A stretch of 64,000 nucleotides of DNA from Candidatus Poribacteria bacterium (GTDB taxonomy: Bacteria; Poribacteria; WGA-4E; PCPOR2b): contig CBDCUX010000005.1 in NCBI GenBank assembly GCA_965222805.1, positions 4,068,770 to 4,132,769 of the forward strand, in the 5' to 3' direction. Under the pieces are notes generated by a model, which searched no databases, was not told the origin of the DNA, and saw only the letters and a program-made list of their open reading frames with translations. Position 1 is the stretch's first letter. The number at the start of each line of letters is the position of its first letter. Below, one piece after another: positions 3,605 to 55,194 of the stretch. Both the position numbers and the translations under genes were made by a program.

Positions 3605-4615
3605 ATGACTCACGCCAGCCGATACTTTGCCGACATGGAGCAGCTTCTGAAGAAAACGGGTGACATTATCGCAGGTCTACTAGGGGGCGAAGCGGCTTTG
3701 GTAACGTCCGGTTGTGCGGCAGCACTTGCCTTGAGTTCGGCGACCTGCATGGCTGGAAATGATTCCGATAAGATTCAACAGCTGCCGGATACGACCGGCA
3801 TGAAAAACGAAATCATCATCCAAAAGTCTCAGCGATACCATTACGACCGATGTATAACCATCTTTGGTGCCAAGATGGTCGAGGTGGGTGATGAGCATAC
3901 TACCGCTGAGCAGGGGAAGCCGCCAATCACCGACAAAACCGCCGCTATCCACTACGTCGCGCCCGGAGGTGGTGCGGGCGTTGTATCGTTAGAAGAGGTT
4001 ATCAGTATTGCCCACGCCCATGATATTCCGGTAATCGTTGACGCCGCAAGTCAGGTCTATCCACTAGATCAGATGCGTCGGTATCCAGCGGCGGGTGCAG
4101 ACCTAATCGGTTACGGTGTGAAATACTTCGGCGCGTGCAACTCGACGGGGGTTCTGTGCGGTCGCAAGGATTTGGTGGATGCAGCGTTTCTCAACAGTTT
4201 CATCGGTTACGAAATGCACCTTACGCGGTGCGTCGGCAGACCGCTGAAATTAGATCGGCAGGAGATTGTCGCTGTCGTCGCGGCATTAGGCGAATGGTTT
4301 TCCATGGACCACGACGCACGAATCGCCGAATACGAGCAAAAAGCGCAAGCCATTCAGGTTTCCCTCAATGGTGTTGCCCATATCACCTACGAACCGACCT
4401 CGGATGAACGCGCACTAGGCAATGGGCTTCGGGTAATCTTGGACGAGGGTGCGTTGGGTAAAACCGCTGGCGAGGTCGCCGCGATTTTACTTGATGGCGA
4501 CCCAAGCATCTGTCTGCACGGCGGTAATGGTGCGCTGCATATCGCTGTATCGAATCTGGTCGGAGATGATGTACAGGTGATCTCAGATCGGTTGAGAGAA
4601 GTACTGACAGCTTAG
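3605..4615 (+). CDS. SelA-like / DgaE-like PLP-dependent enzyme (COG1921 family)
   Basis: 336 aa. The segment GYGVKYFGACNSTGVLCGRKDLVDAA resembles the Lys-containing PLP site and the GRKDL motif of SelA/DgaE-type enzymes. Confidence 0.5.
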   Translation: MTHASRYFADMEQLLKKTGDIIAGLLGGEAALVTSGCAAALALSSATCMAGNDSDKIQQLPDTTGMKNEIIIQKSQRYHYDRCITIFGAKMVEVGDEHTTAEQGKPPITDKTAAIHYVAPGGGAGVVSLEEVISIAHAHDIPVIVDAASQVYPLDQMRRYPAAGADLIGYGVKYFGACNSTGVLCGRKDLVDAAFLNSFIGYEMHLTRCVGRPLKLDRQEIVAVVAALGEWFSMDHDARIAEYEQKAQAIQVSLNGVAHITYEPTSDERALGNGLRVILDEGALGKTAGEVAAILLDGDPSICLHGGNGALHIAVSNLVGDDVQVISDRLREVLTA

Positions 4616-4748: not shown

Positions 4749-5693
4749 ATGCCACTATGGGAACGTCAACTCAACGAATGGCTTACCGAGAAACCGGAAC
4801 GCACAGCGGCGGCTGATTTTGAAGCGTTCTGGGACGAAACGCAATCGCTGGCTCAATCCCAACTGCTGAATCCAGAGGTTGTCTCTGTAGAATACCCTTC
4901 AAAGAAGCTATCCGCCTATCAGGTCTCGTTCGATGCCTTTGACCGTGGCCGTATTCAGGCATGGCTTCTCGTACCTATCGCTTCCACATCGGAGAAACTC
5001 CCCGCACTCATCCGTTGGCACGACTACCTCGGTTTTCGTGGACGTATCTGCACACACCTGTCGTGGGCACTTCAAGGATTCGTCGTGCTCGTGCCAGATA
5101 TCCGGGGGCACGGAGATTCTTCCGACTTGACTCATTACTCGTGGGGTAATAACAAGGGTTACTTCGCTCAAGGCATCCAGGATTCGCACGAATACTATTT
5201 ACGGGGCTGCATCGCCGATGGGCTGCGAGCGGTTCAGTTTCTTAACGAGCGTGAGGATGTCGATTCAGATCGGGTCGGGATTATTGGAGATGGGCTAGGC
5301 GGGTTGGTCAGTCTATGGACGGCGGCATTTAACCCGCAGATCAACACGATTGCCCCAGTTGCTCCGTATCCTTGCGATTGGGAGCGGCATGTTATCAGTG
5401 CGAGCAGCGTTGCCGCGGATGAAGTCAAGATTTACCTGACGCGCTATCCGGAGCACGAAGAGACGGTCTGGAAAACATTGAGTTACTTTGACCCGATCAA
5501 TATCGCTCACCGTGTAACGTGTCCGTCGCTGTTCCCCCTTGGTCTACAGGGCAACACCGCACCACCTCAAGACTCAGTGGGCATCTACAACCTGCTCGAA
5601 GCCGAAAAGGAGTTGAAACCACTGCCTTACGACGGGCACGGCGCAGGTATTGAAGAGTTGATTGGCTGGATGCAAGAGCGGTTAACCCCGTAG
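4749..5693 (+). CDS. Acetyl xylan esterase / cephalosporin-C deacetylase family (CE7) paralog, apparently catalytically inactive
   Basis: Homologous throughout to the adjacent CE7 gene. The nucleophile motif is GDGLGG where the paralog has GGSQGG, and the acid position is LQGNTAPP where the paralog has LRDTTCPP. The His region YDGHGAG is retained. ATG 4749 has AAGGAG 7 nt upstream; the ORF track start at 4662 is a spurious extension. Confidence 0.75.
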   Translation: MPLWERQLNEWLTEKPERTAAADFEAFWDETQSLAQSQLLNPEVVSVEYPSKKLSAYQVSFDAFDRGRIQAWLLVPIASTSEKLPALIRWHDYLGFRGRICTHLSWALQGFVVLVPDIRGHGDSSDLTHYSWGNNKGYFAQGIQDSHEYYLRGCIADGLRAVQFLNEREDVDSDRVGIIGDGLGGLVSLWTAAFNPQINTIAPVAPYPCDWERHVISASSVAADEVKIYLTRYPEHEETVWKTLSYFDPINIAHRVTCPSLFPLGLQGNTAPPQDSVGIYNLLEAEKELKPLPYDGHGAGIEELIGWMQERLTP

Positions 5694-5768
5694 CAAACTG
5701 TAGGGCAGTAGGGAGTCATAGATGTAATTCTCTACCATCAGTTTGTGCGATAACAGGAGATTTATACG

Positions 5769-6731
5769 ATGTGGACATTTGACTTACCATTAGAAGAGTT
5801 GGAAACTTACAAACCACCCCGCACCGCGCAGCCGGACTTTGAGGAGTTTTGGGCACGCACGAAAGCGGAGGGATTGGCACAACCGTTGAACCCTGAGTTG
5901 GTCCCTATTGACTATCCTGTAAAACGGGTTCAGGTATTTTCTGCAACATTTGATGGCTACGCGGGCGGAAGTGATCAGCCACCGCGGGCAGGTGGTTGGT
6001 TTTTCATTCCCGAAGACCCTGCCCCGCGCCCGGCGTTAGTGATCTACCACGGCTACCACGGCTATCGCGATAGAATCTCGACCCATTTGCCTTGGGCGCT
6101 GATGGGGTTCGCGGTGTTAGCGATGGATGTGCGTGGACGTGGTGAGGCACCGGATTGGACTGAGTATGAAGGGGGGCACGGGCTCGGCTGGATGACTCGA
6201 GGCATCATGAACAAGGAGGAATACCTCTATCGCTTCGCTTATATGGATTGCGTGCGTGGTGTCGAATTTATCGCGGGGCGTCCGGAGGTAGATCCCGATC
6301 GAATTGGCGTGCTCGGTGGTTCTCAAGGTGGCGCCTTGAGTCTTGCTGTTGCAGCACTGAGTGACCGACCCGCCATCGCGATGCCGATGGTTCCCTTCCT
6401 ATGCTACTATCCCGATGCCGTGAAGATGGCACGGGAGAACCAATACGGCGAGTTGAACAACTACTTCATTCGTTATCCTGAACGGGAAGCGGAAGGGATG
6501 AAGACGTTGAGCTACGTTGATAATATGAACCTTGCACCGTGGATAACCTGTCCGACGCTGGTCTCCGTTGGCTTGCGGGACACCACCTGTCCGCCCTCGA
6601 CCGTTTATGCGACCTATAACCATCTCACCTGCGAGAAGGAGATCCTGTATTACCCCTACGACATGCACAGTGGTGGTGGTGACGCACACAGGGAGCGGGT
6701 AATCGAGTGGGCGCATCGGTTGAATCCGTGA
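5769..6731 (+). CDS. Acetyl xylan esterase / cephalosporin-C deacetylase (CE7 family, AXE1)
   Basis: GxSQGG nucleophile motif (VLGGSQGGALS), Asp in GLRDTTCPPST, His in YPYDMHSGGG. The length and N-terminus are typical of CE7. Confidence 0.85.
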   Translation: MWTFDLPLEELETYKPPRTAQPDFEEFWARTKAEGLAQPLNPELVPIDYPVKRVQVFSATFDGYAGGSDQPPRAGGWFFIPEDPAPRPALVIYHGYHGYRDRISTHLPWALMGFAVLAMDVRGRGEAPDWTEYEGGHGLGWMTRGIMNKEEYLYRFAYMDCVRGVEFIAGRPEVDPDRIGVLGGSQGGALSLAVAALSDRPAIAMPMVPFLCYYPDAVKMARENQYGELNNYFIRYPEREAEGMKTLSYVDNMNLAPWITCPTLVSVGLRDTTCPPSTVYATYNHLTCEKEILYYPYDMHSGGGDAHRERVIEWAHRLNP

Positions 6732-6821
6732 GCCGTTTCTACCTAGCAGTTTACCAAGTTTGAGGACAGATTGGGAAAACGGGAAAGCAGTATTCTCTCG
6801 TTTTCCCGCTCTATTCTTCGC

Positions 6822-8744
6822 TCAGAACCATGTCGTATACAGGGGTGTTTTGAGAATAATACTCAGCAGTCCCCAATATGTGCCGACAATGAAGTCCCCA
6901 ACCACCAATCCCATGAAAAACGGGACAACCTTCCGATAGGCCGTCGCCCCGCCGTGTTTTAAGATTAGCAATTTTATCGTCCAGCAGACCAGAAGCGCGA
7001 ACCAGTAGACATCAATGGTGCCGGAGCTGATGCCCAGAATATATCCCGCTGGGTGGAATGGAAACCATATAAAACGCATCCGCATCCATCCCATTAGAAT
7101 TGAGAAAACAACCGAACCACCAATGATACCGGTGCCTAAAGTATCGGGTTCCTTAGGATTTTGTAACCAGCCGCTCAAGCTATTGGACGCTTGGGTGCCT
7201 GCTGCTAGCAATTCCCCGGCGGTTGAGGCGCCGTACTGGTACAGCATGACCGGAAAGATCCAGAATGCCAAGAGAACACCAACAATAAGAGAGAGCATCA
7301 TCGCCCAAGTGAGTCGTTGGGTATTGGCACCGGTGCCTTCGGCGGACTTGAAGGCTTCCAACTGGTGAGGCATGGGGTGGCTTCGGTTTAACCGATTGAA
7401 CCAATAAAACAGCGAGAACATAGTCAAATTTGCAGCGCCGATTTTGCGCGTTCCAAGCGCAGAAACGAGCACGACTTGTGGATTCACGAGGACGATTGCG
7501 TGTAAAGGTGGACCCAATTCGGCTCGCATTCGCGTGAGTGCTGTGGCAATCATGAAGTAGAGTCCGAAGAATACCGGCACAAGCCATCGAGACATCCCTA
7601 AACTGTTGCAATAAAAAATCAGGACGATCATCCCGCCGATGAAACAGAGCACCGCTGTCCGATAACGCATTGGCTCGTCCGAATCATCAAGTGTTGATTT
7701 CAGGTTAATAACCTTCTTGAAAACCTCCCAAAAGTACCGTCGTCCCATGTAGAGTGTCATCACACATAACCCAATCATCGCCCCGGTGGCTTGCTCCCCA
7801 AAAAACGGATAGCGCGGCATAGTATTCCAACCCATCATTGCGCCGAGCAATCGCTCCATTTTGCGAAACAGGAAGAAGAACCATGTCGAAAAGGTGAGGT
7901 CTAAAGGTATTAGGAAGGAGAGTCCAATAAGAAATGGGTAGAACCGTATTGGCAACGCACCGATGGCATTCCACGGTTCCTCTGTGAACAAGACACCCAG
8001 ATTGTAGCTGGGCTCCTTGATTGGAACATGTGGAATCTTTGGATATATAAAACTTATCCCGTTGATGAGGCTGATTGCGCCTGCGACACTAAAACCTATC
8101 CACATGAGCCGGTTACGAAAGAAGCCGTGGGTGGGATTGGTCATCTCCATTGGGATTTGGATAATTGGATAGGCGAGTCGCTCATTTTCGATCCACTGCT
8201 TCCGAAGGATAACGTTAAGACAGATTAGCATAAAAAAGAGGACTGAAATCAGGAACGACCACGCAATGGCAGGCCGGATCCAGAATCGATAGTAGCCTGC
8301 GGACCAGAAGGCAGATTCGCCTTTGTAAAAATACTCGACAGCGTCAGGGTCTCGGACGAGCAGCACATCCGGAAGGTATCTGTGAAAGAGGTTTGCCCAT
8401 TCGTTTGCAGGTGTCGCGTAAAAATAGGCATGAGGAATAACCCCCATCATACAGACCATGTTGTCGTGGGCGGTGACGGCGGTGGTTGCGGAGACAGTGG
8501 TGTAAATCATCAGCAGTTCCGCTTGCGAAAACGGCTCCTTCGACATGAACCGCCCGCCGATTTTGTTGAATAAAATCAGGAAAGAAAGGAAAAAGATAGA
8601 GAGTTGCGGCAGGGACATTGATGTCCAATGGAGGGAATGCCATATCATCTCCTCAAGTGCCACAAGGTAGAGGCACAGAGGCATGAGCAGCAATCCAAAC
8701 AGGATTGCTCTTATTGAGATGCGGGAGGTTTCGACCTGTTTCAT
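6822..8744 (-). CDS. Polytopic integral membrane protein, unknown family (paralog A), about 14 predicted TM segments
   Basis: 640-aa ORF, strongly hydrophobic and W/F/Y-rich. About 75% identical to the adjacent paralog at 8931-10880. I recognise no catalytic motif. Confidence 0.6.
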   Translation of the reverse strand: MKQVETSRISIRAILFGLLLMPLCLYLVALEEMIWHSLHWTSMSLPQLSIFFLSFLILFNKIGGRFMSKEPFSQAELLMIYTTVSATTAVTAHDNMVCMMGVIPHAYFYATPANEWANLFHRYLPDVLLVRDPDAVEYFYKGESAFWSAGYYRFWIRPAIAWSFLISVLFFMLICLNVILRKQWIENERLAYPIIQIPMEMTNPTHGFFRNRLMWIGFSVAGAISLINGISFIYPKIPHVPIKEPSYNLGVLFTEEPWNAIGALPIRFYPFLIGLSFLIPLDLTFSTWFFFLFRKMERLLGAMMGWNTMPRYPFFGEQATGAMIGLCVMTLYMGRRYFWEVFKKVINLKSTLDDSDEPMRYRTAVLCFIGGMIVLIFYCNSLGMSRWLVPVFFGLYFMIATALTRMRAELGPPLHAIVLVNPQVVLVSALGTRKIGAANLTMFSLFYWFNRLNRSHPMPHQLEAFKSAEGTGANTQRLTWAMMLSLIVGVLLAFWIFPVMLYQYGASTAGELLAAGTQASNSLSGWLQNPKEPDTLGTGIIGGSVVFSILMGWMRMRFIWFPFHPAGYILGISSGTIDVYWFALLVCWTIKLLILKHGGATAYRKVVPFFMGLVVGDFIVGTYWGLLSIILKTPLYTTWF

Positions 8745-8930
8745 TTTGAGTCGATGTCTAATTTTTGTTTCGTGGATTAGGGTTTTATACTAACGCAAAT
8801 CGCCACCTATCGCCCCGTTGGGGGCAAATGAGCTAATGAATATTTTTCTGAATCAGGATTAAAGGATTGAAGGGTTTTTAGGAAAAAAACGTGGTGCCTG
8901 AAATGTGAGATCAGTTTCCACCATTTCGGT

Positions 8931-10880
8931 TTAAAACCACGTTGTGTACAGGGGTGTTCCTAGAATGATACTCAGCAGTCCCCAATAGGTGCCGACGATG
9001 AAATCTCCGACCACCAATCCCATGAAGAAGGGCAAAATCTTCCTATAGGTTTTTACTCCACCGTGTCTCAGGACCAGCAGTTTGATCAGCCAGCAGACGA
9101 ACAAGGCGAACCAATAAACGTCAATTGTGCCAGAACTGACGCCCAGAATATATCCACCCGGATGGAATGGGAACCATAGAAAGCGCATTCGCATCCATGA
9201 CATCCACATAGAAAAGACCAGCGATCCACCAATGATACTGCCGCCGACTGGGTCCGGCGAACGTGGATACTGCAACCACCCGCCGAGGCTATTGTAAGCC
9301 TGCCAACCTGCACCCAGCAATTCCCCTGCGGTTGAAGCACCGTATTGATAGAGTACGACGGGGAAGATCCAGAATGAAACCAGAAGACCGACAAGCAAAG
9401 AGATCATCATCGCCCAGAATAGGCGGCTGGTGCTCGCGTGGGTGCGTTCTGCCGACTTAAATCCCTCCAGTTGATGCGGCATCGGGTGGCTACGGTTGTA
9501 TCGGTTGAACCAGAAAAGCAGGGAGAACATGGTTAGATTGGCTGTGCCGAGTCTTCGTGTCCCAAATGCTGCGACGAGAATAACTTGTGGGTTTACCAAT
9601 CGAATCGGATGCAAGGGGGGACCGAGCTCCGCTCGCATTCGTGTCAATGCGGTGGCGATCATGAAGTAAAGCGCGAAGAACAGTGGCACGAGCCATTGGG
9701 ACATCCCCAAGTGGCTGCAGAACACCATCAGGGCAATCATGCCGCCGATTAAACAGAGTACCGCAGTTCGATAGCGCATTGGTTCGTCTGTGTCGTCAAG
9801 CGTAGATTGGAGCCCAATGACTTTTCTAAAAACGTCGGTGAAGTGTCGGCGGCCTAGGTAGAGTGCTGTGATGCAAAGTCCAATCATAGCGCCGGTGGCT
9901 TGTTCGCCAAAGAATGGATATTGTGGGATAGTGCTCCAGCCAACCATCGCACCGACCAATCGCTCCAGTTTACGGAATAGGAAGAAGAACCACGTCGAAA
10001 AGGTGAGATCTAAGGGGATTAGGAATGAGAGTCCAATCAGAAATGGATAGAATCGCAGCGGCAGTGTGCCGATAGCATTCCACGGCTCCTCGTTAAAATA
10101 GACACCTAGATCGTAGTTTGGTTCTTTTATCGGTATGCGCGGCACGCTCGGATAGAGGAAGTTGAGTCCGTTGAGAAGGCTTATCACCCCAGCGACGGTG
10201 AATCCTATCCACATCATCCGGTTGCGGAAGAAACCGGAGCGTAAATCGGTCATCTCCAGCGGAATCTGAATAATTGGATAGGCGAGTCGCTCGTTTTCAA
10301 TCCACTGTTTTCTGAGAATAACATTGATGCAGAGCAGCATAAAGAAAAGGACAGCAAGCAGAAAGGACCAACCGATGGCAGGCTTAATCCAGAATCGATA
10401 GTAGCCGCTCGCAAAGAAATCGGATTCGCCTCTGTAGAAATAGTTCACCGCATTGGGGTCACGGATAACGAGCAGATCAGGGAGATGTTTGTGGAAAAGC
10501 GCTGCCCACTCGTTTTCTGGGGTGGCGTAGAAGAAGGCGTGCGTAAGGACCCCCATCATGCAGACCATGTTGTCGTGCGCGGTGTATGCTGTGGTTGCAG
10601 AAAGGGTCGTATAAATCATCAACAATTCTGCTTGCGAAAATGGATTTCTTGACAAAAACCGTCCAGCGATTTTGTTGAGGAGAATTAAGAAAAAGAGAAA
10701 AAAGATAGAGAGTTGCGGCAGGGACATTGATGTCCAGTGGAGGGAATGCCATATCATCTCCTCAAGGGCTACCAGATACGCACACAATGGCATCAGCAGC
10801 AATCCAAACAGAATCGATTTTATTGAAATACGAGAGGCGTCTGGCTGTTTAGCCTCACCATTTTCGTTCAGGTTCATCAC
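8931..10880 (-). CDS. Polytopic integral membrane protein, unknown family (paralog B)
   Basis: 649-aa ORF, collinear with paralog A across its whole length (shared WHSLHWTSMSLPQLSIFF... N-terminus and identical C-terminus GDFIVGTYWGLLSIIL.TPLYTTWF). Confidence 0.6.
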   Translation of the reverse strand: MMNLNENGEAKQPDASRISIKSILFGLLLMPLCAYLVALEEMIWHSLHWTSMSLPQLSIFFLFFLILLNKIAGRFLSRNPFSQAELLMIYTTLSATTAYTAHDNMVCMMGVLTHAFFYATPENEWAALFHKHLPDLLVIRDPNAVNYFYRGESDFFASGYYRFWIKPAIGWSFLLAVLFFMLLCINVILRKQWIENERLAYPIIQIPLEMTDLRSGFFRNRMMWIGFTVAGVISLLNGLNFLYPSVPRIPIKEPNYDLGVYFNEEPWNAIGTLPLRFYPFLIGLSFLIPLDLTFSTWFFFLFRKLERLVGAMVGWSTIPQYPFFGEQATGAMIGLCITALYLGRRHFTDVFRKVIGLQSTLDDTDEPMRYRTAVLCLIGGMIALMVFCSHLGMSQWLVPLFFALYFMIATALTRMRAELGPPLHPIRLVNPQVILVAAFGTRRLGTANLTMFSLLFWFNRYNRSHPMPHQLEGFKSAERTHASTSRLFWAMMISLLVGLLVSFWIFPVVLYQYGASTAGELLGAGWQAYNSLGGWLQYPRSPDPVGGSIIGGSLVFSMWMSWMRMRFLWFPFHPGGYILGVSSGTIDVYWFALFVCWLIKLLVLRHGGVKTYRKILPFFMGLVVGDFIVGTYWGLLSIILGTPLYTTWF

Positions 10881-46496: not shown

Positions 46497-46901
46497 ATGA
46501 AAAAGTTAGTTATAGCAACAATCGTTATTGCGCTATGTATAATTGCAAGTATTCTACAAAGTCAACAGTCCACTAAAGAAACAATCATTAGAGAAAAGCT
46601 AATTATCACTGACGAATACGGAAACAAAAAAATCGTTTTCACTGCCGCCCACGATGGTGCTATCGTTGAAATTAAGCACAAAGAAACAAGGATAACATTA
46701 GGAGTTGGGGATATGGGTGCTATACTTGATCTCGCTCATGACGAAGCAGAAACTAAGCGAGTCATATTACACACAAAACATGGGAAACCCGCAATAGAGT
46801 TACATCACGGCAAAAGCACCATAATCTTATTATTCGACAGCAACAGAACACCCATTATAGCAGCAGTAGATAAAGACGGGAAGATAAAAAAAGTAGAATG
46901 A
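46497..46901 (+). CDS. Hypothetical secreted/membrane-anchored small protein (AT-rich gene)
   Basis: 134-aa ORF with an N-terminal hydrophobic segment. AAA/ATA-rich codon usage unlike its neighbours. Confidence 0.45.
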   Translation: MKKLVIATIVIALCIIASILQSQQSTKETIIREKLIITDEYGNKKIVFTAAHDGAIVEIKHKETRITLGVGDMGAILDLAHDEAETKRVILHTKHGKPAIELHHGKSTIILLFDSNRTPIIAAVDKDGKIKKVE

Positions 46902-47035
46902 AAGATATTATATTCAAAAAAGTTCAACCGGACGACGATTTGAGCCTTTGTGCGATCAAAAATCTCGAGCGTTTGTATTTTGAAAAATCCACAATAGTTG
47001 GCCACAATGACCGAAGGCTCCACGGAGGAATCGAC

Positions 47036-47827
47036 ATGACAAACTCAAATAAGAACAGCTCTCCCATTTCAGAAGCGCAAATTGAGCAGTATACCCGTGA
47101 CGGTTACCTGCTGGTTTCCGGATTGATTTCTGAAGACATCGCTGCAAAAGCGGAAGCTGCAATGTGGCGTTGCATGGGAATTGATTCCAATAATCCGCCT
47201 TCCTCTTGGGACGACGTCCAAGGAGGCATCTGTCTATACAACAGCGTGGATCTCGTCAACTGCTTCACCCCGCAATGCCTCGCTGCAGCAGCGCAGTTGA
47301 CTGGAGAAACCCCGTCCACATTTAGCAAGCTACATCGGCATCCGAAAACCTATTGCGCCCCAGACTTCCTAGCAGCGCAAGAAGCGAAAGAAGATGTCTC
47401 CAAGTTCTTCAGATGGGATTGCGCTTACACTATCAATATCCATCCAACCTCAGATGAATGGGAAACCCCAACAATCACATCGGGAGGGCATCTAGATCAC
47501 TCCCTTGAGGAACACTATCACAAGACTTTTCCGCCTGTCTTTCGAGTCGGTGCCCTGATTTATCTGAACGACATCGCACCTCACGGTGGCGGCACGTTTG
47601 TCTGGCCTAGATCGCATCACGAACTAGAGCGTGTGGCAAGAAAAAACCTCATGCGCTATGAATACCGCAACTCGTTGAACGGAGATCTACCCGAACTCGA
47701 TCTCGGTGACCCCGTTGGTTTGCCTATTCGGCGCGGCGATGTGCTATTCCTACATCACCTGTGCATCCATTCGGGAAGCAAGAATGTGAGCAATCAGCCA
47801 CGATTTGCTATGAATATGAAATGGTAA
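47036..47827 (+). CDS. Phytanoyl-CoA dioxygenase (PhyH) family Fe(II)/2-oxoglutarate oxygenase
   Basis: N-terminal IEQYTRDGYLLV motif. HxD...H iron triad candidates HLDH and HGGGTFVWPRSHH. ATG 47036 with a GGAGG RBS; the track ORF begins at 46898. Confidence 0.6.
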   Translation: MTNSNKNSSPISEAQIEQYTRDGYLLVSGLISEDIAAKAEAAMWRCMGIDSNNPPSSWDDVQGGICLYNSVDLVNCFTPQCLAAAAQLTGETPSTFSKLHRHPKTYCAPDFLAAQEAKEDVSKFFRWDCAYTINIHPTSDEWETPTITSGGHLDHSLEEHYHKTFPPVFRVGALIYLNDIAPHGGGTFVWPRSHHELERVARKNLMRYEYRNSLNGDLPELDLGDPVGLPIRRGDVLFLHHLCIHSGSKNVSNQPRFAMNMKW

Positions 47828-49287: not shown

Positions 49288-50396
49288 ATATCTAAATAGG
49301 ACTTACGCAAGTTTCATCTGAATAGCGGGCGATTTCAATTGTTGTCGCAAGTATTGGGAGAATAAACTGTGCTTGACTTGATAAATGGTTTGGTCTGTCT
49401 GATACGCGACTTGTTTGAGTCGCACCCAAACCAACATTGCACAACCGATGTGATTGCGAACAATTCGTGCCAAGCGACATTGACACCCCTCCAGACCGGT
49501 CAACTGCTTGGCTTCCCGGTGAAACTGCTCAATCTTCCACCGCCGGTTACACGCTTGTTGTGCAACCGATGTGTCGTTTTGAGCTAAGTCGTTGGTAACA
49601 ACATAATCCGTGCGCCCGTTACCGGACGCAACCCGGAAAAGTTTCACCTTGTGATGCTTGGCAAAGCCTCTGATTTTAATCCGTTTCCCGCGTCGGCGTT
49701 CACACTCGGTCCACTGCAAGCTATCTACACGCTGGTAAGGCGTTTGGGCATTGGAGTCGTCTACCTGACGATTCGACTTCAGCGGGCAATAGTAATGTTT
49801 GTCTAACTGTTCAATGGATAGCATCAAATCTTTGGCGGCATACCAGCTATCCATCAACACCGTTGAGAACAAAAGCCGCTTGTGATAGACCGAGTGGGAT
49901 AACATCTCTTTAACATGATCTAATTTGCGCTTGCCATCTGTCTGTGGGTCGTAAATACGGTAGTCAATCACCCAGAAACGATCTAAGTCGGGATTGACAT
50001 AGACACAAGTCACCACACCTATACCGTTAATGACACCTTTGGCGTTGCCGCTATACTGAACACGCGCTAGTGCTATGTTCCGAGCGTAGCGCTTATCCAA
50101 AACGGTGTCATCAAAGATGACATATCCCCCTTCTGTTTGCACAAGGTGGGGTTTGACATTTTCCCATACCAAGCGTGGGCGGATACGCTCACCGGCAAGA
50201 TAACGGTTTATCATATCATGACTGAACTGTTGGCTATGGTCAGCCAAATGGGTTAAGGTATAGTTGATGGGGCTACTTAACAAATACTGACAGTAATCGA
50301 GTCGAGTCGGTTGGGGCATATTCACCTCCATGCCACTCATTCTACTGTGTTTCAACAATTATGTCTATCGATTTTGCGTAAGTCCTATCTAAAGCT
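49288..50396 (-). mobile_element. IS element (IS4/IS701-like) with imperfect terminal inverted repeats of about 20 bp around the core TTGCGTAAGTCCTAT
   Basis: Left end CTAAATAGGACTTACGCAAG (49292-49311) is the reverse complement of right end TTGCGTAAGTCCTATCTAAAG (50375-50395). A single transposase ORF lies between them. No clear target-site duplication identified. Confidence 0.7.
49303..50358 (-). CDS. DDE-type transposase (IS4/IS701-like family)
   Basis: 351-aa ORF filling the IS. Conserved D...D...E-type spacing (DDTVLDK ... MDSWY ... KIEQFHREAK). Confidence 0.7.
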   Translation of the reverse strand: MLKHSRMSGMEVNMPQPTRLDYCQYLLSSPINYTLTHLADHSQQFSHDMINRYLAGERIRPRLVWENVKPHLVQTEGGYVIFDDTVLDKRYARNIALARVQYSGNAKGVINGIGVVTCVYVNPDLDRFWVIDYRIYDPQTDGKRKLDHVKEMLSHSVYHKRLLFSTVLMDSWYAAKDLMLSIEQLDKHYYCPLKSNRQVDDSNAQTPYQRVDSLQWTECERRRGKRIKIRGFAKHHKVKLFRVASGNGRTDYVVTNDLAQNDTSVAQQACNRRWKIEQFHREAKQLTGLEGCQCRLARIVRNHIGCAMLVWVRLKQVAYQTDQTIYQVKHSLFSQYLRQQLKSPAIQMKLA

Positions 50397-50565
50397 ACCT
50401 CAACGATAAACGTTCAAAAAACAGAGTTAAATAAATATTTCCCGAAACTTGACCTTGATACTTAACGTATGTTATGGTAAAATAGTATCTATCATCTCAT
50501 TTTTTGGTACGATTTAATCTATAGCTGTGATGAAACGCGATATCATTAGAAAGGGAAAATAACGC

Positions 50566-52299
50566 ATGGCAACCCAAGAAGCAAAATGGACGAAATTGGC
50601 GGATTTGAGCGAGGTTCCCGTTGGAGAAGCGAAGGCAGTGCGGATAGGTGAAGGGCGGAGTATCGCACTGTTCAACGTTGACGGCAAACTCTATGCGACT
50701 GACAACCAATGCCCTCACATGGGTTATCCGCTGACACGCGGACGCATTCGACGCGGCATCCTCACCTGCGATTGGCACGAGCGAAGCTTCGACCTTGAAG
50801 GGGGTGGCTGTTTCAACGTTGAGTGCGATGATCTGCAAACCTTTCCCGCCGAAGTACGGCACAACGAGATTTGGGTTCAACTCGGCGATTTGACCTATAG
50901 ACGGAAGGCAGAGCATCTCAACCTATTGTGGGAAGGACTTCTGAGCGGAGACCGCTGGACGATGTCAAAGGCGATTGCCCTACTCCTTAAAGGGGGCGTG
51001 CCGGAAGTAGAGATTGTCGAGTTAATTCTACGACATCTTGGGCGACATATCGCTAGCTCGCACGGATCGGAGGCGGGTTGGGATATCGCTCGATTGATGA
51101 ACGGACTTTCGGTTGGGCGACGATATAAAGACGCGGATCGGCTGATTGCGATGACGACCGCTGCGTGTGCTGCCTCCGGCGGAGCTGCTGAACGTCTTGA
51201 AGTTGTGCCGTTGCCGGAGCCGGTAGCTTGGGAGAATATCGACCCGTGGATACGCAGCTTCTCACGCGACGGTCGCTCTGGACGCATCGAGCGTTGCCTC
51301 TTCACCGCCTACACGCTCGGCGATGCGGATAAAGTTCTGCCCCTCCTTTTTGAATGCACGGTTGAGCCGCACTTTCTCGGCTTCCCGGATAATCTCATTT
51401 CGCTCGGTTATCTCTCCGAAGCGGTTGATGAATTTGGCTGGGAGAAAGCCTTTGAACTGGTCTTCAATCTCGGTGCTCAGCTGGTTGGGCGTGGGCGTGG
51501 GGAACCACAACGGTTTCGCCGAGATGCCATCGGTATCATGAGAGAGAAACTCGGTGAATTGGATGGCTCGGATAACGCAGCAACCGATTATGACGAGGAT
51601 GCCTTTGTAACCGCATTGACAAGCGTGGATATTCAGAAGTCATTCGACGCTGTTGCAGCCGCTCTACAAGGTGGTGCTCCAATCGACCAGATCATTTCAA
51701 CATTGGTGATCCTCGCCGCCGACCGGATGGCGCGAACCCCGGTGAATGTGGATGGCGGTTGGGAGTGCCTGACGACGGAACTTAACCTCGCTGCATCACT
51801 CCGCACGGTGCAACGCATTGCGGGTGATACCGCTGCGGCAAAGGGAATCTTCCACGCAGCGTGGCTCATTTTCGACGACCGTTGGCTCAACATTCCGTTG
51901 CGCACATTGACTCCGCCGCCGGTCGAAAGCACACTCAACGTCTCCAATGAGGAGCAAGGCATCCAACAGATTACCAACGCCATTGAAACCCTCAATGTGC
52001 AGTCGGTCGGTGGACAGGTGCTCGCATATCTTAATTCTGGTTATTCTGGCGATACTTTGCTCCGCGCGCTCGGTAAAGCGATCCTCTGGAACGATACTGC
52101 CACCGAAATCCTCCCCACACTCCGCACTATTTTCGATGAATGGAACAATTGTGCCGGACACCCCGCCCGCAATCAACTGCTCGTTGCACTTGCGCGCTAC
52201 GCCACTGACATCCGTACCAACAAGGATAGCGAATCTGCTACAACCACGGCGATGCGTTTTGCGGAAGGACGAACGACGGTGGAGGTTTTTGAAGATTAA
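50566..52299 (+). CDS. Rieske [2Fe-2S] domain fused to a roughly 470-aa uncharacterised C-terminal domain (paralog 1)
   Basis: Rieske boxes CPHMGYPL and CDWHE in the first 100 aa. I recognise no motif in the remainder. Conserved with the paralog at GHPARNQLLVALARYATDIR and ADRMARTP. Confidence 0.7.
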   Translation: MATQEAKWTKLADLSEVPVGEAKAVRIGEGRSIALFNVDGKLYATDNQCPHMGYPLTRGRIRRGILTCDWHERSFDLEGGGCFNVECDDLQTFPAEVRHNEIWVQLGDLTYRRKAEHLNLLWEGLLSGDRWTMSKAIALLLKGGVPEVEIVELILRHLGRHIASSHGSEAGWDIARLMNGLSVGRRYKDADRLIAMTTAACAASGGAAERLEVVPLPEPVAWENIDPWIRSFSRDGRSGRIERCLFTAYTLGDADKVLPLLFECTVEPHFLGFPDNLISLGYLSEAVDEFGWEKAFELVFNLGAQLVGRGRGEPQRFRRDAIGIMREKLGELDGSDNAATDYDEDAFVTALTSVDIQKSFDAVAAALQGGAPIDQIISTLVILAADRMARTPVNVDGGWECLTTELNLAASLRTVQRIAGDTAAAKGIFHAAWLIFDDRWLNIPLRTLTPPPVESTLNVSNEEQGIQQITNAIETLNVQSVGGQVLAYLNSGYSGDTLLRALGKAILWNDTATEILPTLRTIFDEWNNCAGHPARNQLLVALARYATDIRTNKDSESATTTAMRFAEGRTTVEVFED

Positions 52300-52360
52300 G
52301 TCAAACGATCATGAAACTTCTTGAAAAGTGCTTCAAACAGAACAACAAGGGAGATTAATC

Positions 52361-54109
52361 ATGTTGAACACATCATCCAATTTCGTCAAAGTCGCCAATC
52401 TAGACGAACTTGCCGAAGGGAAACCGAGAGCTATTAGAGTTGAAGGGCAAAGCATCGCCCTGTTTAAGCACAACGGCAACATCTACGCCACCGATAATCA
52501 GTGCCCTCACATGGGCTATCCGCTGACACGCGGGCGTGTCCGTGGCGGCGTGCTCACCTGCGATTGGCACGGTTGGAGCTACGATATGGGGGGTGGCGGC
52601 TGTTTCACAGGCGGTTGCGATGACTTATCGACCTTCCCAGTCGAAGTATGTGAAGACGAAATATACATTGATGTCGCCAGCGGCGGAAACAAGCGGGATG
52701 ACGCCCATTTTCTCCTGCTCCAAGAAGGGTTGTTGAGTGGGGACAACTGGACGCTCTCGAAGGCGGTTGCGATTATGCTTGCCAGAGGAGTTTCCGAAGC
52801 AGATGTCCTGAATCGATTAGTGCGACATGGGGGACGACATTTTGTTACTGAACTTGATGCAGGCGAAGGGGGTTGGCAACTCGCGTATCTAGTCAACGGT
52901 GTGAAGGTTGCTAGTCAGTATGAACCGGAGGACCGGCTCATCCCGCTGATGATGGCTGCGTCGGGTGCATCGGGACGGGCAGGAGATCGCCCAGCGATTA
53001 ACCCTCTACCGGGAGAGATAACGTGGGAGAAGTTGGAGAGATGGATTCGCGTCTTCTCTGCTGACCGAGAATGGGAGGGCATCGAAAAGTGCCTCATCAC
53101 CGCACGGCGTCTTGGCGGACATGACGATAAAATCATTCCATTGGCATATGAATGCGTTGTCGAGCCGTTCTTCTTGGGGCATAATGATAGCCTGCTCTAC
53201 GTCGGTTATCTCGCCGAATTGCTCGAACAGTTCGGTTGGGAGGTCTCTGAAGAGTTGGTTTGTAATCTCACGGCGAAAATACTTGGTCGGGGTCGTGACG
53301 CACCGGACGAAATCCGGCGGGAGGCAATCAGCAAGCTAGAATCGTTAGAGGGTTTTATCGCCGATTTAGCCGCCAATCCAGCTACCCCAACAACCGATTT
53401 TGACGAGGACGCATTTGCCGCAGGTGTTGTGAGCGGTGATCTCGACAACACATTCGATACAATTACCGACGCGCTGAAAAGTGGTGTCGAAATCAACCGC
53501 ATCGTTTCGACGATGGTGCTTCTGGGTGCTGATCGGATGGCACGTACCCCAGCCAGTATGAGCCCAGGCTGGTGGGAGTTGGGACGGGAGATTTCCCTCG
53601 CCTCGTCCATCCGTACGGTGTTGCGTGTCGCGGGTTTTGAGGTTGCTGCCAAAGCACTCTATCACGTAGCGTGGGAATTCTTCAGCAACCGCTGGCTCAA
53701 CATTAGGCAGATGCTACTTAGTGCTTCGAGAGGTACAACCACATCAGATGCACCAAACGAACAGGCTGCAATTGAGGAGGTCATCAATACTATTGAAACA
53801 GTTCAGATTCAGGAGGTTGGACGGATGACGCGACAATACCTCAACGGTAGCTTCTCCGCCGACCGGCTATTGTCTGAACTGGGACAATGCATCCTCAAGG
53901 ACGATAAAGGTTGGGATATCCTGAATACATTGCGGACCGCGTTTGACGAGTGGGAGCTGTGCGAGGGACACCCCGCTCGAAATCAGTTACTTGTTGGACT
54001 GGCGCGTTGGACAACTGATGTCCGTAAAAACACCAACAGCGATTCCGCCGCGAGAACCGCGCAGCGATTCGCACGAGGTGAGACAGCCGTTGACCTGTAT
54101 GAACAGTAG
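52361..54109 (+). CDS. Rieske [2Fe-2S] domain fused to the uncharacterised C-terminal domain (paralog 2)
   Basis: ATG 52361 with an AAGGGAG RBS. CPHMGYPL...CDWHG. Collinear with paralog 1 at roughly 50% identity. Confidence 0.7.
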   Translation: MLNTSSNFVKVANLDELAEGKPRAIRVEGQSIALFKHNGNIYATDNQCPHMGYPLTRGRVRGGVLTCDWHGWSYDMGGGGCFTGGCDDLSTFPVEVCEDEIYIDVASGGNKRDDAHFLLLQEGLLSGDNWTLSKAVAIMLARGVSEADVLNRLVRHGGRHFVTELDAGEGGWQLAYLVNGVKVASQYEPEDRLIPLMMAASGASGRAGDRPAINPLPGEITWEKLERWIRVFSADREWEGIEKCLITARRLGGHDDKIIPLAYECVVEPFFLGHNDSLLYVGYLAELLEQFGWEVSEELVCNLTAKILGRGRDAPDEIRREAISKLESLEGFIADLAANPATPTTDFDEDAFAAGVVSGDLDNTFDTITDALKSGVEINRIVSTMVLLGADRMARTPASMSPGWWELGREISLASSIRTVLRVAGFEVAAKALYHVAWEFFSNRWLNIRQMLLSASRGTTTSDAPNEQAAIEEVINTIETVQIQEVGRMTRQYLNGSFSADRLLSELGQCILKDDKGWDILNTLRTAFDEWELCEGHPARNQLLVGLARWTTDVRKNTNSDSAARTAQRFARGETAVDLYEQ

Positions 54110-54449
54110 AGATGCAAAAAAACTGATTTGCCACCTAGTGGTAATTGCTTTATTTCTAAGTCCTATTTCAACTGCACACAGCGTTAGTGTGAAAACACAG
54201 GGGAAATTAGCACTCGTAGCAATTTTAGGCGGCGTTGCGATTCTGACGAAGTACCTCGTTGGACGAGATCAACAGGCTGCCAAAGCACTCCATGCCAAAC
54301 TCGGTCCGCCAGAGCGTGTTATTGAGTTCGAGCGCGGCTTCGATCGGTGGCGGATCGAATGGTATGGAAATCAAAGATATATATTCCAAAACAATGTCTT
54401 GCAGAAAGAACCTCTTACAAAACCAGCTGCGACCTCTGAGGCGTTTTAA
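54099..54449 (+). CDS. Small secreted protein (116 aa)
   Basis: Start ATG overlaps the stop of Rieske paralog 2. Signal peptide MNSRDAKKLICHLVVIALFLSPISTAHS. The track ORF 53943-54449 has a spurious N-terminal extension. Confidence 0.45.
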   Translation: MNSRDAKKLICHLVVIALFLSPISTAHSVSVKTQGKLALVAILGGVAILTKYLVGRDQQAAKALHAKLGPPERVIEFERGFDRWRIEWYGNQRYIFQNNVLQKEPLTKPAATSEAF

Positions 54450-55194
54450 GCCGTTCAAAAGTTGGATCTGGCTCTTACCGATCTGCTTTTTCATTTTGAT
54501 GATAATCGGCTGCAGTGGCGATGAAATCCTAACGCCTCCGATCCGGCATACTATAGAAATTAGCGAACTAAGTCTTGGGAACCGGACTCTAGACCCGGGT
54601 GGCACCACAACGGTTACGGCAACGTTTGGTTATTCGGGAGATGAGGCAGATCTGATTTTCAGATGGGAGGCAAGCAGTGGGCAGATTGTTGGGGAGGCAT
54701 CGAGCGTGACCTACGTTGCGTCGGACGTACCTGGCACGCACACCATCACGCTAGAGTTGACCGACGGGTTTGGAATGGTTGAGTACTCCATTACAGTTGA
54801 GGTTATTGCTCCGCAAACGCTCTTAATAGATTCTGATACCTACTGGGCAGGTCAAGGCGAAACGCTCGTGTTGAGATATCAGGTTAGCATTACGCAGATC
54901 TTGCATCAACCTGTGACACTACGGTATAACATCCTTCAAGATGAAGCTAGGATTGGTGCGTTTTTGAATGTCGAAATCGATGGAACTTTGCTTGTCGAGG
55001 AAGAAGCGATTGGAGAGGTAGATCCTGTCGAAAGAACCGTCATCGTCGGAGAGATTGATGTGTCACGAATTATCACAGGGTCAGGGATGTATGAAATAGC
55101 ACTGACTTTGGCTGTTGTGAACCCTGTCGAGCGTGGGTGGCTGTTACAAAAGGCGGAGATAACCGGAGCAGAGGGCTCAGCAGTTCTGCTGTGA
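54394..55194 (+). CDS. Lipoprotein with predicted beta-sandwich repeats
   Basis: Lipobox LMIIGC after a long n-region. The mature part is T/V/E-rich (TVTATFGYSGDE, HTITLELTDG). Overlaps the preceding small gene in another frame. Confidence 0.5.
   Translation: MSCRKNLLQNQLRPLRRFKPFKSWIWLLPICFFILMIIGCSGDEILTPPIRHTIEISELSLGNRTLDPGGTTTVTATFGYSGDEADLIFRWEASSGQIVGEASSVTYVASDVPGTHTITLELTDGFGMVEYSITVEVIAPQTLLIDSDTYWAGQGETLVLRYQVSITQILHQPVTLRYNILQDEARIGAFLNVEIDGTLLVEEEAIGEVDPVERTVIVGEIDVSRIITGSGMYEIALTLAVVNPVERGWLLQKAEITGAEGSAVLL

Follow-up and report, generated by a model that had tools for sequence, protein, structure and literature searches.

Rieske ferredoxins are free-standing proteins of ~105 amino acids (aa) that shuttle electrons from a reductase to an oxygenase. 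The alpha subunits of Rieske oxygenases, such as naphthalene dioxygenase (NDO), the carbazole, phthalate and dicamba oxygenases and SxtT, carry an N-terminal Rieske domain and a larger domain in one chain. BTG13, PaD, GedK and BruN are non-haem-iron dioxygenases of the DUF4243 (PF14027) family, which use four histidines together with a carboxylated lysine and cleave hydroquinones or anthraquinols in partnership with a separate quinone reductase (PMC12173810, PMC11371914, PMC11575538). Their last two iron ligands form a C-terminal HxxK pair, H394/K397 in PaD and H386/Kcx389 in BruN (PMC11371914, PMC11575538). OzmD is listed in the same DUF4243 family. Here, we describe two adjacent genes, A and B, in a stretch of 64,000 nucleotides (nt) from Candidatus Poribacteria bacterium (contig CBDCUX010000005.1, positions 4,068,770 to 4,132,769 of the forward strand), referred to as the window and numbered from its first letter. 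Our preferred explanation, held tentatively and with rather more doubt than conviction, is that A and B make up a soluble, cytoplasmic, heteromeric iron-sulfur redox enzyme that combines a Rieske domain with a DUF4243-like helical domain.

Two paralogs with an N-terminal Rieske domain

The features of the pair are as follows:
50566-52299, + strand: gene A, 577 aa, Rieske domain fused to a helical domain (open reading frame (ORF), Pfam Rieske match, AlphaFold2 (AF2) model)
50584-50880, + strand: Rieske [2Fe-2S] domain of A, residues ~7-105, ligands C49, H51, C68 and H71
50893-52296, + strand: helical C-terminal domain of A, residues 110-577, all-helical
52361-54109, + strand: gene B, 582 aa, paralog of A with identical architecture (ORF, Pfam Rieske match, BLASTP)
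52379-52672, + strand: Rieske [2Fe-2S] domain of B, ligands C48, H50, C67 and H70

The genes are co-directional. The ATG of B is preceded by a GGGAG ribosome-binding site and gives a protein of 582 aa; starting instead at the upstream GTG (52328) would lengthen it to 593 aa. Over their full length, A and B are 49% identical across 586 columns (BLASTP, 543 bits, E = 0), in line with an original prediction, made by a model that saw only the letters and their translations, of paralogs about 50% identical over 577 and 582 aa. The complete Rieske module that it saw in each protein is borne out by Pfam, where PF00355 matches residues ~7-100 with E values of 4e-17 (A) and 2e-20 (B), both above the gathering cut-off of 20.3 bits, and by complete cluster-ligand motifs, C49-P-H51...C68-D-W-H71 in A and C48-P-H50...C67-D-W-H70 in B. 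All of the motifs that it quoted were located: CPHMGYPL...CDWH in the Rieske domain and, farther along A and B, RH.GRH (residues 156/155), ADRMARTP (385/390) and GHPARNQLLV.LAR..TD.R (531/536). Among 29 diverse members of the family, 28 retain the cluster ligands.

We compared the Rieske domains with those of known Rieske ferredoxins (BphF, 1fqt; NDO ferredoxin, 2qpz; TodB, 3dqy; T4moC, 1vm9) and with NirD. Ferredoxin-like folds are predicted for the Rieske domains of A and B, and sequence and structure searches of the Protein Data Bank (PDB) place the domain nearest to the stand-alone Rieske ferredoxins. Unlike these, A and B carry it fused to a domain of 470 aa and have no linked reductase or oxygenase gene. 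The likeness to Rieske oxygenase alpha subunits lies in the one-chain layout, and the electron transfer that crosses between subunits in Rieske oxygenase oligomers is the obvious analogy for A and B. The second domain is all-helical in A and B, whereas the catalytic domain of Rieske oxygenases is START/Bet v 1-like, and structural matches to these enzymes are confined to the Rieske part (105-127 aligned residues). A motif scan found the Rieske-oxygenase motif [ED]x3Dx2Hx4H in neither protein, confirming for both paralogs the predicted lack of the mononuclear-iron site of the alpha subunits; a 2-His-1-carboxylate motif and a Pfam match of the Ring_hydroxyl_A type are likewise missing. Neither protein has a signal peptide or transmembrane segment, and the predicted location of both is the cytoplasm.

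The helical domain and the DUF4243 dioxygenases

The region that follows the Rieske domain had been described as unassignable to any family. At the level of sequence this stands: residues 110 to the end of A and B have no Pfam match even at E<=10 and nothing in NCBIfam, a phmmer search of PDB sequences with A and B returned Rieske domains only, and a family profile run against the same sequences added only a chance match to 6-phosphogluconate dehydrogenase (E 0.03). At the level of structure it may not, since the predicted structure places the domain of A nearest to DUF4243. From 29 sequences, AF2 gave a confident model of A (predicted local distance difference test (pLDDT) 85, predicted template modelling score (pTM) 0.80); it consists of a Rieske beta-domain followed by ~20 helices and is closest in structure to the DUF4243/questin-oxidase dioxygenases. 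A Foldseek comparison with the PDB was swamped by Rieske-domain matches and did not inform on the helical domain. On the strength of the model of A, a DUF4243-like fold for its helical domain is supported but not proven.

The closest described enzymes differ from A and B in several respects. In length, the helical domain exceeds the bacterial DUF4243 proteins found here by ~100 aa, it is joined to a Rieske domain as in no described DUF4243 enzyme, it occurs as an A/B pair, it has no detectable sequence similarity to DUF4243, and iron binding is putative here. Ligand positions cannot be transferred by sequence, because the profile of bacterial DUF4243 proteins, used against PDB sequences, reached neither BTG13 nor PaD. 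The linear order of the histidine segments in the family roughly parallels that of the PaD ligands (H63, H166, H317, H394/K397): counted into the helical domain, H157/H161 lie at ~50, H282 of the main branch of the family (or D275 of A) at ~168, H430 at ~323, and H528 of the main branch (or H532 of A) at ~415-425. This match in order is suggestive only. Bacterial DUF4243 members have the HxxK pair as H327/K330, A and B have GHPAR, an HxxR, at 531/536, and the main branch has FHxxQ; the sole HxxK in A and B, HDDK at residue 254 of B, is outside the C-terminal half.

The helical domain is outside the models of Pfam and NCBIfam, has no solved structure, and is the subject of no paper that we found; literature searches for the family, for a Rieske domain with DUF4243, and for an ECF (extracytoplasmic function) sigma factor with a Rieske domain returned nothing. 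Database names end at "Rieske (2Fe-2S) protein" or "nitrite reductase/ring-hydroxylating ferredoxin subunit", and the suggestion that this is an undescribed family holds: the proteins are conserved and annotated simply as "Rieske (2Fe-2S) protein". The two options that had been named for it, an enzyme or a sensor, also still stand. The Rieske and the DUF4243-like parts are of known kinds; what is new is that they are fused and that they come as a conserved, putatively heteromeric pair.

An old two-gene unit

Orthologs of A with 62-98% identity occur in Poribacteria, Acidobacteria and Latescibacteria; homologs at 96-98%, together with a genome scan, mark the window as Candidatus Poribacteria. 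We retrieved 25 Poribacteria and Bryobacteraceae genome loci, in one of which A stands alone and one of which is cut by a contig end; the remainder are paired. Of 24 informative genome loci, 23 have an A-type gene followed by a B-type gene, as do L001, L003, L114, L115 and L116. The genes are ~60-96% identical to their own type and ~43-53% to the opposite type, and in every paired locus the first is nearer A and the second nearer B. The duplication that gave rise to A and B is therefore old, and the pair has been inherited (or transferred) as a single unit. In Bryobacteraceae, in another metagenome-assembled genome (MAG) of Acidobacteria, in a Latescibacteria MAG and in two metagenome contigs, the B-type gene starts 12-101 nt after the A-type gene, and the flanks of the pair are wholly different in each lineage. 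A and B are an isolated, self-contained two-gene unit.

The sole exception to the pairing is L018, where an A-type gene (7671-9440, 71% identical) has no B-type gene within 8 kb. In some divergent Poribacteria, the pair is split by ankyrin-repeat genes (L021, 9417-10700; L027, 9414-10703 and 10750-11328), and L022 and L024 have a comparable gap between A and B. We considered the ankyrin genes as partners of A and B and rejected them, as they look like inserted symbiont "eukaryote-like" genes.

Among 30 A-type and 30 B-type sequences, ~50 polar residues (W and Y included) are conserved in at least 95% of each type. H117, K135, H157, H161, E242, C244, C264, R387, W399, H430 and H532 (A numbering) are invariant in the A/B clade, so that the helical domain keeps five histidines and two cysteines in both subunit types. 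Both subunits look functional, because the conserved polar set is the same in A-type and B-type proteins, which have just 22 fixed differences. A co-inherited pair with common conserved residues is what is expected of an obligate heteromer of two functionally similar subunits, and we infer that A and B form one.

Distant relatives and their gene contexts

A profile of the two helical domains matched 358 clusters (50% identity) among 1.84 billion protein representatives. Most family members have ~580-600 aa and the same Rieske-helical architecture, and a scan of metagenome contigs with a profile of six sequences found at least 484 relatives, mostly from apparent soil samples. By hhalign (probability 100%, E 3e-45), the helical domains of A/B and of the main branch belong to the same family. 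In the main branch, the genes occur singly.

Residues conserved throughout the family are K135, E242, R243, R311, R387, W399, R439, Y488, D510 and R544. H157 and H161 are found in the A/B clade and in two small branches, and the main branch mostly has Phe or Tyr there; the RHxxRH form is seen in A, B and the P0159/P0169 branch. The main branch has its own polar set, H282, D285, N288, K289, E320, E321, N408, E409, D412, H418, H528 and Q531 (P0180 numbering), and the A/B residues in these 12 columns are D, I/L, G, Y, E/A, P, V/M, D/S, G, T/R, E/D and P/N.

A blind census of 108 flanking ORFs of distant relatives found no dominant partner family. In two loci, L061 and L086, the next same-strand ORF directly downstream is a PF14027 questin-oxidase gene (42.6 and 48.8 bits; cut-off 27). 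The same arrangement is found in four contigs of Candidatus Binatus, where a divergent MarR-like gene is followed by a Rieske-helical gene (586 aa) and a questin-oxidase gene (352 aa):
L117-L120, 4226-7059 (L120: 3104-5937): Binatus operon, with glutathione S-transferase (GST), OsmC, luciferase-like and alcohol dehydrogenase (ADH) genes adjoining

Three of the four contigs have identical gene order, and a related genome (L121, 6001-7083) keeps the synteny without the Rieske-helical gene. The operon association, which emerged separately from the fold search, supports a functional link with DUF4243 enzymes. Another distant relative is flanked by two flavin mononucleotide (FMN)-reductase genes, a nitroreductase and a glyoxalase, a context reminiscent of the pairing of a reductase with the dioxygenases BTG13, GedK and BruN (PMC11575538).

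Other relatives are joined to, or lie near, signalling components. P0220 (843 aa; L031, 1519-4050) has ECF sigma-70 regions 2 and 4 ahead of its Rieske and helical domains, and P0205 (734 aa, on a 3.2-kb Logan contig) has an adenylate/guanylate cyclase C-terminal to the Rieske-helical module. P0261 sits between response-regulator and SpoIIE phosphatase genes, the gene cluster ahead of P0159 encodes histidine kinases, response regulators and a Ser/Thr kinase, and genes for cyclase-STAND-tetratricopeptide repeat (TPR) proteins adjoin family members in L040, L078 and L103 and lie ~8 kb upstream in L029. In L031, P0220 is preceded by a TetR gene and a methyltransferase gene and followed by a SnoaL-like gene (4043-4471), an unknown gene and then another Rieske-helical gene (5107-6885). 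The helical domain also occurs without a detected Rieske domain: with a WD40 propeller in P0225 (761 aa), with a 3-keto-disaccharide hydrolase domain (DUF1080) in P0259 (659 aa), and alone in P0207 (457 aa).

A proposed Rieske-coupled enzyme and its alternatives

The working model for A and B as a redox enzyme has three steps:

(i) The Rieske domains would hold low-potential, ferredoxin-type [2Fe-2S] clusters, one per subunit, each of which would accept electrons, one at a time, from a reductase or ferredoxin of the cell.

(ii) The electrons would pass to a putative histidine-rich site (H117, H157, H161, H430, H532) in the helical domain of the same subunit or of the partner.

(iii) At this site, a small and probably quinone- or hydroquinone-like substrate may be transformed in a redox reaction, O2-dependent or otherwise.

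Of this model, the heteromer, the path of the electrons, the metal site and the class of substrate are all proposals. Several results weigh against the model. PF14027 matched none of 29 family members (A, B and 27 relatives) at E<=10, and hhalign comparisons of the family profiles with the bacterial DUF4243 profile gave probabilities of 0.4% and 0.1%. The C-terminal HxxK pair of DUF4243 is absent from A and B, and H282, D285, K289, H418, H528 and Q531 of the main branch are replaced in A/B by D, I/L, Y, T/R, E/D and P/N. The AF2 model of B, built without B-type homologs, is poor (pLDDT 64, pTM 0.40), and it reproduced the matches resembling the MgsA C-terminal domain (MgsA_C) and not that to BTG13. 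Beside the A/B pair there is no conserved gene for a reductase, for catabolism or for biosynthesis, and some distant relatives have signalling fusions or signalling neighbours.

The last of these points leads to the main alternative, which we think unlikely and in which the protein is a redox, oxygen or quinone sensor whose Rieske cluster reports the redox state and whose helical domain signals by contacting other proteins. On this reading, A and B would form a heteromeric sensor that stands alone, perhaps with a ligand site in the helical domain, and their output partner would be encoded elsewhere. The sigma-factor and cyclase fusions of P0220 and P0205 fit this, as do the signalling genes beside P0261 and P0159 and the cyclase-STAND-TPR genes near the three metagenome loci and L029; moreover, P0159 and P0261 belong to minor branches that share H157/H161 with A and B, and P0159 has the RHxxRH form. 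However, signalling outputs are fused in only 2 of 10 representatives scanned for extra domains, the census of 108 neighbours contains no dominant signalling partner, and no regulator or output gene adjoins the A/B orthologs in ~10 distinct contexts, nor is one fused to them. The strict co-inheritance of two near-equivalent subunits is equally typical of enzymes.

Distinctly less probable, in our view, is that the DUF4243 likeness is an artefact of a single model, that the helical domain serves as a scaffold or in oligomerisation, and that the protein is a dedicated Rieske electron carrier for an unlinked partner enzyme. The nearness of the Rieske domain to stand-alone ferredoxins and the missing profile similarity to DUF4243 are what such a carrier would lead one to expect. 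Two family members also have weak Pfam matches to MgsA_C (E 0.12), and part of the helical domain resembles the C-terminal helical domain of MgsA/WRNIP and clamp-loader lids. An AAA+ module is missing from A and B, and the likeness covers a fraction of the domain and may reflect a generic helical bundle. Nevertheless, some 470 aa with such a number of near-invariant polar residues, among them the five histidines and two cysteines, would be much for a scaffold, and it would be strange if the independent link through operons with genuine PF14027 genes were due to chance.

If A and B are a redox enzyme of this kind, they would represent a structural solution for Rieske-coupled oxygen chemistry that is distinct from the START-like domain of classical Rieske oxygenases. 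The catalytic domains known to be fed by Rieske clusters are of few kinds, to which a DUF4243-like helical domain would add one. The 4-His/carboxy-Lys dioxygenases, so far mostly from fungal natural-product pathways, would be tied to a widespread bacterial family. The A/B pair may belong to the conserved gene set of Poribacteria, an uncultivated phylum of sponge symbionts, and is a candidate for a role in their redox or aromatic-compound metabolism. The fusions to sigma factors and cyclases raise the possibility of a new, Rieske-based sensing principle. Taken as a whole, the proposition that A/B and their relatives in soil bacteria are a new Rieske-dependent metalloenzyme architecture in which a built-in cluster supplies a DUF4243-type metal site with electrons, self-contained, heteromeric in the A/B clade and co-opted in some lineages as a redox input for ECF sigma factors or nucleotide cyclases, is one that we consider doubtful on present evidence.

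Local neighbourhood of the pair

The following features surround A and B in the window:
49297-50382, - strand: insertion sequence (IS) element of ~1.09 kb between sat and A, with a DDE transposase ORF at 49303-50358 (Pfam DDE_Tnp_1)
50449-50483, + strand: candidate sigma-70-like promoters between A and the end of the IS, as two matches that overlap (consensus scan)
54099-54449, + strand: small protein of 116 aa, hydrophobic segments at residues 9-27 and 36-55, no Pfam or NCBIfam match
54394-55194, + strand: putative lipoprotein of 266 aa, lipobox IIGC, overlapping the small-protein gene

The original prediction had noted two overlapping downstream genes, for a small secreted-type protein and a lipoprotein, and the overlaps, the hydrophobic segments and the lipobox are indeed present, with an 11-nt overlap between the start of the small-protein gene (ATG) and the end of B. 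From these, it had proposed an envelope-associated module with a redox input, and it had allowed that the adjacency to sat might or might not be functional. The order ModA-PhyH-sat-A-B-small protein-lipoprotein-ADH-lactonase-PfkB-AHCY is syntenic throughout 18 Poribacteria loci whose A is at least 84% identical (L025 among them retains only B), and A, B, the small protein and the lipoprotein occur together in 17 close Poribacteria loci. With synteny extending all the way from ModA to AHCY, this co-occurrence says nothing about function. Beyond the close clade, neither the small protein nor the lipoprotein nor sat stands beside the pair, be it in the divergent Poribacteria that carry A and B at 61-64% identity (L021, L022, L024, L027, L028) or in Bryobacteraceae, Acidobacteria, Latescibacteria and the metagenome contigs. 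The three genes are local neighbours of the pair and nothing more, and this removes a misleading association of A and B with envelope proteins and sat. An envelope module of A, B, the small protein and the lipoprotein is thus largely refuted and very improbable: the gene overlaps make co-transcription likely in this genome, yet 100-250 nt separate B from the small gene in L006, L008, L012 and L023, L016 has no lipoprotein gene, and A and B are themselves predicted to be cytoplasmic. A functional link of the pair to sat, PhyH or ModA was likewise rejected, as these genes accompany it only in the close, fully syntenic clade.

Within the lipoprotein candidate, weak PKD matches at residues ~107-182 (E 0.0016-0.0017, under the Pfam thresholds) suggest an immunoglobulin-like extracellular domain.

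An IS does separate sat from A, as had been predicted. It lies 183 bp upstream of gene A and has terminal inverted repeats of 18 nt (49293-49310 and 50374-50391); its boundaries were placed by comparison with L004. The insertion is, by this comparison, recent in this genome, because the element is missing from all 25 related genome loci, including the 93%-identical L004. The better of the two promoter candidates between the IS and A reads TTGATA-17-TAAAAT with an extended TG, in a region where the number of matches is not significantly above that in shuffled sequences.

On the far side of sat, and convergent with it, lie a gene for a protein of 134 aa with an N-terminal hydrophobic segment (46497-46901) and a gene of the PhyH (phytanoyl-CoA dioxygenase-like) family (46898-47827), whose start is overlapped by the former; the PhyH gene is kept in the close Poribacteria.

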